Source: Parcubacteria group bacterium CG_4_9_14_0_2_um_filter_35_11 (GTDB taxonomy: Bacteria; Patescibacteriota; Minisyncoccia; Minisyncoccales; GCA-002788555). Taken from it: a stretch of DNA of 25,265 nucleotides. Positions 1 through 3,949 of the stretch are shown piece after piece. The DNA lies in NCBI GenBank assembly GCA_002788555.1, contig PFRL01000055.1, positions 1-25,265 of the forward strand. The letters run 5' to 3'. Numbering within the stretch: position 1 is the stretch's first letter; each line of letters opens with the position of its first letter. The notes under the pieces were generated by a model. It saw only the letters and a list, made by a program, of their open reading frames with translations. It was not told where the DNA came from and made no database searches. The position numbers and the translations under genes were made by a program.

Positions 1-1709
<1,709 letters not shown>

Positions 1710-1997
1710 TTACTCTATAATTGCTAAAATGTCTTCACCTTTTGCAATCAAATATTTTTTATCATCGACCTTTATTTCGTCAGGACCATATTTTCTGAAG
1801 AGGACAATGTTTCCCTTTTTAACTCCTGGCTCAACTATTTTCCCAGAAGATAAATGTTTGCCTGGTCCGACGGCAATAACTTTTCCCTGCTGAGGCTCTT
1901 TTTCAGCCGTATCAGGAAGAACAATTCCTCCTTTCGATTTTTTTTCTTCTTCTAAAGGTTCAATTAAAATATAATCTTGAAGAGGTTTTATTTTCAT
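1710..1997 (-). CDS. groES: Co-chaperonin GroES
   Basis: 95 aa, MKIKPLQDYILIE...GGIVLPDTA.KEPQQGKVIAVGPG...GNIVLFRKYG; adjacent to groEL. Confidence 0.99.
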   Translation of the reverse strand: MKIKPLQDYILIEPLEEEKKSKGGIVLPDTAEKEPQQGKVIAVGPGKHLSSGKIVEPGVKKGNIVLFRKYGPDEIKVDDKKYLIAKGEDILAIIE

Positions 1998-2004
1998 AAA
2001 TCTT

Positions 2005-2166
2005 CTACTAATTTACGAATAGCTTACGAATATACCCGAAAGCGGTGTACGAATATAAATGCGCTTTCGGATACGAATTTCTTTAAGTTATTCGTAGCCG
2101 ATTGCCTAAATTCACAAATTCGTACTCTGGCAATCGGTATATTCGTACTGATTCGTAAATTCGTAG
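2005..2166 (-). repeat. Structured groES 5' leader of nested inverted repeats (TACGAAT x4, ATTCGTA x5)
   Basis: Stems read from the sequence: 2005-2020/2151-2166 (15 of 16 bp), 2025-2035/2137-2147 (11 bp), 2036-2044/2062-2070 (9 bp), 2072-2078/2090-2096 (7 bp), 2098-2106/2129-2137 (9 bp). Confidence 0.85.
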
Positions 2167-2170
2167 TGTA

Positions 2171-2197
2171 TTAGCAGTCTCGACCTTTAAGTGCTAA
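2171..2197. promoter_or_regulatory. CIRCE operator (HrcA binding site)
   Basis: TTAGCAGTC-N9-AAGTGCTAA versus the consensus TTAGCACTC-N9-GAGTGCTAA, one mismatch per arm. It sits just downstream of a sigma70-type promoter and upstream of groES. Confidence 0.92.
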
Positions 2198-2203
2198 ATC
2201 AAA

Positions 2204-2231
2204 ATTTTAGAAGATTTTAAAATCTTGTCAA
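2204..2231 (-). promoter_or_regulatory. Sigma70/SigA-type promoter of groESL
   Basis: Minus strand TTGACA (2231-2226), 16-nt spacer, TAAAAT (2209-2204), with CIRCE starting about 7 nt further on. Confidence 0.8.
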
Positions 2232-2245
2232 GTCTCCTCCAACAA

Positions 2246-3949
2246 TTATTTTGTGAAATACCATTTTAAGACCTCCTTTGCAATTGGAAGAGCTATTTTT
2301 TCTCCACTGCCTCCATATTCTATCATTACTAATAAAAGAATTTTTGGTTTCTCATAAGGGGCGAAAGAAACAAACCAGGCGTGGGGTTCTTTATTGCCAG
2401 GCGCTTCAGCAGTCCCTGTTTTTCCAGCCGAACTTACCGGTAAAGATAAAAGTTGCCGACAAGAACCAGTCAAAACACACTCCCTCATTGCTTTTCTGAC
2501 GCTCTCAATATTCTCTTTTTGAATAAAATTTTCTCTCAAAACTTTGGGGTTGATATCTACAATTGTTTTTCCGCCCAAATTGACAATTTTATTGACAATT
2601 TGAGGCTGGTATATCTTCCCTCCGTTAGCAATAGACGATAAAGCCACTGCTAAATGTAATGGCGTAGTAAAGAAATACCCCTGACCTATCGAAACATCAT
2701 AGACATCGGCAACAGACCACTGTCTTTTTTCTATTTTCTCTTTTTTCTCTTTAAACCACTGAGGGGTTGGGATAAAACTAACCTTCTCGCCAGGAATATC
2801 TATTTTCAGTTCTTCCTCAAGATAAAAAAAATCTAAATATTTTTTAATCCGGGAGATTCCCAGTCCATCAATATCGCCATACCCTCCTCCTACCGTAAAA
2901 AAATAGACATTACAGGATTGGGCAATTGCTTTATCCAAGCTAGTTATACCATGTGTCCTCCAGTCTTTTTTGATAGAGGGCTTTAATGGATTCCAAGGAT
3001 TAGGAATAATTACTCTTCCTTGGCAATTAATTTGGGTCTTGGGAGTAATTATTCTTTCTTCTAGGCCTGCCGCTGCGATAAGCGGTTTTATTGTTGAGCC
3101 AGAAGGATAAAGGCCGGAAAGCACCCAATTAGGATTGTTAATCTTCTTCTCCTTTTCTAATTTCGCTAGCTTCTCTTCTGATAATCTTTGAGAATAAACA
3201 TTATTATCGTCTGAAGGCAGAGAGACCAAAGCTAAAATACTGCCATCTTGAGGATTTAAAGCTATGGCCGCGGCATTTTTATTTCCCGCTCTTTTTTTTA
3301 TCTCATCATAAATTTTCTTTTGAAGTTTTACATTAATATTGAGAATAAGATTATCCCCTTGTAAAGGCTCTTTTTTTAACTTGTCTGACAAAAGTTCTCC
3401 TTTGGCATTGATTATTTTCTCTCTCATCCCTTTTTCTCCTCTTAAATACTCCTCGTAGGTTTTTTCTAAACCATTTTTTCCTATCCAGTCACCGAGCTGA
3501 TAGTAAGTAGGATCACTTTCTATTTCTTCTTCAGCAGCTTCTCGGGTATAACCAAGAATCGGAGAGAAATAGAAATTTTCCGGATAATATCGAAGAAAAG
3601 ATTTCTTTTCTTCTTTATCTTTCTTCTCAATGTTTTTTACTAAAGGAAAGTTGTCTTGAGAGTAGATGATTCCCCGTGGAGCTTCTGTATAAACGACTCT
3701 TAAATAATTATCTGTAGCTCGAGCGGTAAATTCTCCTCCTTTTATTTCTATCAAATAAAAAGCCCTTACAAAAAGCGAGAGTGAAAAGATTGAGAGAAAA
3801 ATAAAAATAATAAGAAAAACCGTATCTTTAATAGGAACTTCGAGCCTTCCTTTCTCTTCCTTTTTTGTTTCTTCTGAATCAAGTAAAGTTTCTTCCGGTT
3901 CCAATTCCTCTTTAATTTGAGTTCTCACTTTGTATTTATATTTTTCCAT
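2246..3949 (-). CDS. mrdA: Class B penicillin-binding protein (PBP2/MrdA-like transpeptidase)
   Basis: N-terminal TM helix; catalytic motifs SxxK (GSTIKP), SxN (QSCNVYF) and KTG (AGKTGTAE); G(K)xGLE pedestal motif. Confidence 0.9.
   Translation of the reverse strand: MEKYKYKVRTQIKEELEPEETLLDSEETKKEEKGRLEVPIKDTVFLIIFIFLSIFSLSLFVRAFYLIEIKGGEFTARATDNYLRVVYTEAPRGIIYSQDNFPLVKNIEKKDKEEKKSFLRYYPENFYFSPILGYTREAAEEEIESDPTYYQLGDWIGKNGLEKTYEEYLRGEKGMREKIINAKGELLSDKLKKEPLQGDNLILNINVKLQKKIYDEIKKRAGNKNAAAIALNPQDGSILALVSLPSDDNNVYSQRLSEEKLAKLEKEKKINNPNWVLSGLYPSGSTIKPLIAAAGLEERIITPKTQINCQGRVIIPNPWNPLKPSIKKDWRTHGITSLDKAIAQSCNVYFFTVGGGYGDIDGLGISRIKKYLDFFYLEEELKIDIPGEKVSFIPTPQWFKEKKEKIEKRQWSVADVYDVSIGQGYFFTTPLHLAVALSSIANGGKIYQPQIVNKIVNLGGKTIVDINPKVLRENFIQKENIESVRKAMRECVLTGSCRQLLSLPVSSAGKTGTAEAPGNKEPHAWFVSFAPYEKPKILLLVMIEYGGSGEKIALPIAKEVLKWYFTK

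Follow-up and report, generated by a model that had tools for sequence, protein, structure and literature searches.

The groES leader hairpin of a Parcubacteria group genome is a member of a dispersed heptamer-array repeat family whose arms elsewhere bracket a nuclease gene

The long hairpin in the groES leader of Parcubacteria group bacterium CG_4_9_14_0_2_um_filter_35_11 belongs, as demonstrated by nucleotide comparison of its arms, to a dispersed repeat family whose arms elsewhere bracket a nuclease gene. It is probably a gene-less copy of a dispersed palindromic element, with arms as in GxxExxY cassettes, that was inserted between the CIRCE inverted repeat and the start codon. The earlier note on this DNA had read the structure either as a thermosensor or switch layered on HrcA control or as a domesticated repeat element. 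The first of these readings was not supported; of the second, the repeat element stood, while domestication found no support.

The whole stretch of DNA analysed (the window; 25,265 nucleotides) is contig C45 of the source genome (G000), whose assembly of 543 kb in 58 contigs has 35% GC, is 87.6% complete and has a coding share of 90%. The features of the groES-groEL locus are listed in Table 1. A gene encoding a PBP-type transpeptidase ends at 2246 on the upstream side of groES, and the position of the predicted groES promoter is conserved in relatives. As both the promoter and CIRCE lie upstream of the leader element, the element should be transcribed. CIRCE is found at the groES promoter, as is characteristic of the CIRCE/HrcA regulon. 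HrcA itself (PF01628) was not detected in the 87.6% complete G000 assembly and was found in four of seven relatives from the same family. No enrichment of Shine-Dalgarno sequences was observed in G000, with GGAG present at -20 to -3 in 23 of 565 gene starts versus 29 of 565 in a control window, and neither groES nor groEL has a Shine-Dalgarno sequence.

Table 1. Features of the groES-groEL locus in the window.
Feature	Positions	Strand	Remarks
groEL CDS	2..1588	-	Pfam Cpn60_TCP1; continues beyond the window edge
Second family copy, groES-groEL spacer	1589..1709	-	canonical 4+4 heptamer palindrome with a 45-nt loop
groES CDS	1710..1997	-	95 aa; Pfam Cpn10; ATG at 1997
Heptamer-array palindromic element, groES leader	2005..2166	-	identified by fold and by arm identity with the L036 cassette
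CIRCE inverted repeat	2171..2197	-	single one found in the G000 genome
Predicted sigma-70-type promoter	2204..2231	-	TTGACA 2231-2226, 16-nt spacer, TAAAAT 2209-2204; 11/12 match

Every structural element listed in the earlier note was recovered at the coordinates given there, with minus as the sense strand. Nine heptamers (TACGAAT/ATTCGTA) are present in the leader at 2014-2165, four on the plus strand and five on the minus strand. The window as a whole contains 13 copies of TACGAAT, compared with 2.0 expected and a count that 0 of 100 shuffles attained, and the remaining four copies are all located in the groES-groEL spacer. In the leader, the basal stem pairs 2005-2020 with 2151-2166 (15 of 16 positions complementary; -8 to -23 from the ATG), and a second stem of 11 bp pairs 2025-2035 with 2137-2147. 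These are followed by inner hairpins at 2098-2106/2129-2137 (9 bp), 2072-2078/2090-2096 (7 bp) and 2036-2044/2062-2070 (9 bp), and the loop heptamers at 2048-2054 and 2118-2124 are mutually complementary. The predicted minimum free energy (MFE) of the sense strand is -61.9 kcal/mol versus -32.2 +/- 3.9 for shuffled sequences (z -7.65). The proposed four-way junction reached -61.4, compared with -63.1 for the MFE rod of the same 192 nt, and the two folds have the basal stems in common; with such nearly equal energies, both are plausible. The claim that the initiation region is buried was borne out in part, as the stem covers -23 to -8 but includes neither the start codon nor positions -1 to -7.

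The outer arms of the leader element (2005-2035 and 2137-2166) are canonical TACGAAT arrays. In the interior (2036-2136), two GC-rich hairpins of 9 bp each accompany a central mini-hairpin made of TACGAAT/ATTCGTA; this interior is 72% identical to part of an element upstream of rpsD (G000:C40:21020-21097). This match marks the groES leader copy as composite, and its interior would have been expanded, probably by nesting.

Melting was predicted for a model transcript that begins at the predicted start and extends to +30. The probability of positions -23 to -8 being unpaired rose from 0.07 at 10 °C through 0.09 (37 °C) and 0.13 (55 °C) to 0.51 at 85 °C, meaning that the basal stem is predicted to be paired from 10 to 55 °C and to be half open only near 85 °C, with no melting at physiological temperatures. 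An RNA thermometer or switch, in which the basal stem would mask the initiation region in the cold and open upon heat shock and in which the heptamers and kissing loops would provide alternative states, is therefore highly improbable, as a hairpin that does not melt at physiological temperatures is not a thermometer. It is true that the element sits in a heat-shock leader directly after CIRCE, that its stem spans -8 to -23, that alternative folds of the leader are close in energy and that, where a Shine-Dalgarno sequence is missing, local structure could matter. However, given the lack of Shine-Dalgarno enrichment in G000, there is no such sequence for the stem to mask, and the start codon is outside the stem. 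Furthermore, most orthologous groES leaders lack the structure, and a scan of positions 1500-2400 against Rfam at a permissive E-value returned chance-level matches only, none of which reached the threshold. The same repeat also recurs across the genome before genes of unrelated function, an outcome that the earlier note had listed as a refutation.

The antisense fold of the leader element is as stable as the sense fold (-60.8 versus -61.9), which likewise speaks against a thermosensor. Of about 15 co-directionally placed family copies, 9 had the more stable fold on the sense strand and 6 on the antisense strand, and no sign of RNA-specific optimisation was seen. Genome-wide, G·U/A·C strand asymmetry showed a weak bias that was limited to strongly folded spacers (p = 0.04). 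Known RNA thermometers, such as ROSE and fourU, resemble the groES leader in that heat-shock genes carry them in the 5' leader as a hairpin next to the start codon. They are short imperfect helices that mask the Shine-Dalgarno sequence or the AUG and melt at 30-45 °C. In contrast, the groES leader helix is about 27 bp long, is predicted to remain stable to beyond 75 °C and does not include the AUG, and orthologous leaders do not conserve it.

Within G000, clusters of at least three TACGAAT heptamers were found at nine loci; with the degenerate motif T[AG]C[N]AAT, about 18-20 loci have arrays, of which nearly all are intergenic. The copies share a common plan of approximately four direct heptamers at 7-10-nt spacing, a loop and inverted heptamers; most have the outer ends CTAC...GTAG, and their 3' end lies approximately 4-9 nt before the next ATG. 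Genes downstream of these copies include groES, groEL, dnaJ, infB, ssb, rplK, rplL, rplM, rpsD, rpsM, rpoA, pgk, smpB, yidC and a UPF0102 nuclease-like gene. The copy in the groES-groEL spacer, whose GTAG end is 8 nt before the groEL ATG, has arms that are identical to those of the leader copy at 31 of 36 and 32 of 40 positions. Its loop holds a promoter-like match on the minus strand (TTGTAA-16-TATAAT, 10/12; 1634-1661), from which groEL could obtain a start of its own inside the right arm. One further element (G000:C55:5660-5769) fills the entire 110-nt divergent spacer between the UPF0102 gene (YraN-like nuclease) and smpB, with GTAG 6-7 nt from both ATGs and no obvious room for promoters.

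Arrays of a similar kind are also built from other heptamer words in G000. A CAACTA-type heptamer-array palindrome surrounds a terminator-like hairpin before a tRNA (G000:C53:4462-4604), and a TCCCGA-type palindrome is present at G000:C46:2965-3042. A different repeat family occurs at contig ends (G000:C9:3949-4107 and G000:C41:7503-7700), where CACGCTTAGCGTG palindromes are repeated in tandem about every 37 nt. Two other candidate identities for the heptamers were considered and rejected. They are unlike -35/-10 hexamers, and the canonical promoter lies upstream, which argues against a promoter function. TIGR-Tas arrays were rejected because the heptamers are only 0-4 nt apart, leaving no room for spacers.

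Several known systems of dispersed repeats provide a frame for these observations. Like miniature elements (MITEs) of the Correia/NEMIS type in Neisseria, the family has inverted-repeat ends, a length of about 100-160 bp and positions beside genes where it is predicted to be co-transcribed, and it shows presence or absence at orthologous sites. Indeed, terminal inverted repeats and multiple dispersed copies were both found, and empty orthologous sites exist in the groES leaders of relatives. Correia hairpins have been reported to be RNase III substrates. Unlike Correia/NEMIS, the heptamer-array element has no visible target-site duplication and has arms with an internal heptamer periodicity, and its putative parent carries a nuclease of unknown function rather than a recognised transposase. 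By reading, no direct repeat was seen in the flanks of the leader copy (...ATACA|CTAC... and ...GTAG|AAGA...) or in those of the relative L062.

The REP/BIME/REPIN sequences of Proteobacteria and their RAYT genes are similar in being short dispersed extragenic palindromes at gene junctions within operons that are transcribed as hairpins, as is predicted for the family here, and in that gene-less copies far outnumber the small associated gene. They make no target-site duplication, and none is visible here. REP consensus sequences contain GTAG, which the terminal GTAG/CTAC of most heptamer-array copies recalls. The two differ in that REP is a single imperfect palindrome whereas the arms here are tandem heptamers. 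Moreover, RAYT (PF01797) was not found in G000, and the associated gene in relatives encodes a PD-(D/E)XK-fold GxxExxY protein, not an HUH (Y1) transposase.

A third comparison is provided by the heptameric simple sequence repeats (GGGNATC) of Xanthomonas and Nostoc. They show a preference for about four 7-nt units, are mostly transcribed and are over-represented between co-directional open reading frames, no more than 50 bp from gene ends (Rehm et al. 2015, PMC4692102). The family described here has the 7-nt units, their number of about four and the location between co-directional open reading frames near gene ends in common with these repeats. In contrast, the GGGNATC repeats are G-rich, quadruplex-forming and one-armed, whereas TACGAAT arrays are AT-rich and come as inverted arm pairs that form hairpins. 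A literature search returned no paper with the array sequences and no published description of the family.

The family extends across the order. Tandem TACRAAT pairs were detected in 80 of 151 sampled genomes, with up to 180 per genome; with the reversed pattern as a control, most genomes gave about 0-1. In the sister genome G005, arrays precede recO-like, hsp20, rplE, rpsS, gap, mreB, dnaB, groEL, smpB, gltX and rml genes, and only the positions at groEL and smpB are common to G000 and G005. The groES leader itself is variable. CIRCE and the ATG are separated by 173 nt in the window versus 8-27 nt in ten relatives (G002, G036, G004, L055, L058-L061, L067 and L068). In L053, the closest of the relatives found (GroES 91% identical), there is a CAACTA-type palindrome in the groES leader, a word that also makes up the C53 palindrome of G000, and a TACNAAT element in the groES-groEL spacer. 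A CTCGAAT-type palindrome occupies the leader site in G007, and canonical 100-nt TACGAAT elements are found in the groES leaders of L062, L063 and L066 (72-74% identical). From these states among relatives, it appears that the groES site was empty ancestrally and was hit or replaced repeatedly. In L062 (metagenome contig Ga0078972_1004425; GroES 74% identical), the leader and spacer copies look identical over approximately 94 nt by eye. Seven conspecific contigs from other samples all had identical leaders, and none showed an empty-site allele.

Arms like those of the leader element are also found around small genes encoding GxxExxY proteins (TIGR04256/PF13366; PDDEXK_3, PD-(D/E)XK fold), which were detected in 40 of the 151 genomes. 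The function of PDDEXK_3 is listed as 'Unknown' (PMC3424549). Inverted heptamer arrays were present on both flanks in 21 of 24 GxxExxY genes that were fetched, and inverted shared 7-mers flanking these 24 genes numbered 315, compared with 79 in a reversed control. The heptamer word differs from cassette to cassette, and TACNAAT-type arms were present at six of the fetched genes. The closest correspondence was provided by the GxxExxY cassette L036 (genome G104), whose arms, 441 nt apart, are identical to the outer arms of the groES leader element at 30 of 32 and 30 of 35 positions. Two cassettes from the same family as G000 (L028 and L025) have arms similar to those of the leader, and the leader element itself follows the plan of cassette arms, with two inverted arms of about 3-4 seven-nt words at 7-10-nt spacing.

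By hand count, a GxxExxY gene was present in 22 of 41 genomes with at least five TACRAAT arrays versus 18 of 110 with fewer, a comparison that is descriptive only, as related genomes are not independent. No GxxExxY gene was matched in the 87.6% complete G000 assembly, and full cassettes (forward and reverse arrays 300-800 nt apart) were not found there. With neither GxxExxY nor RAYT in G000, any mobilising enzyme is missing or unassembled. In the repeat-rich genome G071, an array scan for cassettes across twelve contigs (about 200 kb) detected half-elements and compact 64-nt palindromes but nothing else. The scan did not flag a weaker GxxExxY match that lies on the first of these contigs, and the cassette L024 on contig 39 has arms of another heptamer family. 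At G071 loci L010-L020, the 64-nt heptamer palindromes are near-identical and have a copy of a second palindromic repeat (ATGTTCAGATCCCGGCTTCGAACAT) on either side. The arms of the heptamer palindromes are always TACAAAT versus ATTCGTA, giving G·U pairing on one strand only.

The sharp conservation of the heptamer across many families of the order, its regular 7-10-nt spacing and the strand-independent symmetry of the arrays are features that would also be expected of DNA-level iterons, that is, operators through which a regulator or nucleoid protein would co-control the flanked genes. Such a role is very unlikely, as the heptamer word at the same site varies by lineage (CAACTA in L053, CTCGAAT in G007), array loci are non-orthologous between genomes and the arrays at groES lie downstream of the promoter. 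Furthermore, arrays flank the nuclease gene as inverted arms, which fits an element-encoded protein better than a host regulator.

The family may have been exapted as an RNA module at gene junctions, where it would act as an mRNA stabiliser, an insulator or an RNase III processing site; with no Shine-Dalgarno sequences in use, hairpins would then determine how strongly groES, groEL and genes for other abundant proteins are expressed. This reading, which overlaps with that of a gene-less element copy, is unlikely. The lack of Shine-Dalgarno enrichment and the presence of an RNase III gene in G000 are compatible with it, about half of the intergenic regions of at least 50 nt (116 of 239) fold with z below -3, and heptamer palindromes recur in the groES leader and spacer of several lineages. 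The distance from the end of a copy to the start codon is fixed at 4-9 nt, and many copies lie ahead of genes for ribosomal proteins, chaperones and translation factors; in so compact a genome, however, an insertion between genes cannot avoid lying next to both a stop and a start codon. Comparison of L049 with positions 1-3497 of the window revealed 0 differences in the 657 nt of leader, groES and spacer versus 20 in flanking coding DNA, a pattern that weakly hints at constraint. Against an exapted module, many close relatives have no element at all at the same sites, the positions in G000 and G005 differ except at groEL and smpB, and a sense-strand bias in stability was not evident among the family copies and was weak genome-wide.

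A more specific proposal combines mobility with function. GxxExxY nuclease-based homing or copying would place palindromes specifically just upstream of start codons. There, in Patescibacteria that do without Shine-Dalgarno sequences, they would be recruited as leader or insulator modules that RNase III processes. We regard this as unlikely. If true, the groES module would detach the CIRCE-bearing 5' end of the transcript and set chaperonin output, the large GxxExxY family would receive its first role, and the repeated hits of the same site in separate lineages would be explained.

In the preferred reading, that of a gene-less copy of a dispersed element, each arm is an array of about four TAC-N-AAT heptamers placed 7-10 nt apart, and a GxxExxY nuclease that is absent from the assembly would mobilise these arms or have done so formerly. 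The element would have been inserted into a groES leader that was originally about 10-25 nt long, and a sister copy fills the groES-groEL spacer. The leader element would be transcribed together with groES and form a very stable hairpin whose end lies 7 nt from the ATG. The basal helix of about 27 bp is presumably tolerated because the start codon stays free, and it may be cut by the RNase III of this genome. Other long hairpin insertions are cut by RNase III. The leader copy would then be maintained passively or be at most mildly useful. Points against this reading are that no gene for a mobilising enzyme was found in G000, and that neither a target-site duplication nor a presence/absence polymorphism was seen. 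In addition, highly expressed genes for translation and chaperones follow many of the copies, and separate lineages have repeatedly acquired an element at the groES leader site; this bias and repetition could reflect targeting, or a leader hairpin may be selected for and not merely tolerated.

For groES, the result is deflationary, in that the leader does not contain a new thermosensor; the promoter and CIRCE are probably all that heat-shock control relies on in this organism. Regulatory-RNA prediction in such genomes will need to mask the family first. Overall, genomes of the candidate phyla radiation, despite their extreme reduction, carry a prolific family of hairpin-forming repeats that repeatedly occupies the few bases between regulatory sites and the start codons of essential genes and that has its arms in common with cassettes encoding a nuclease-fold protein of unknown function.
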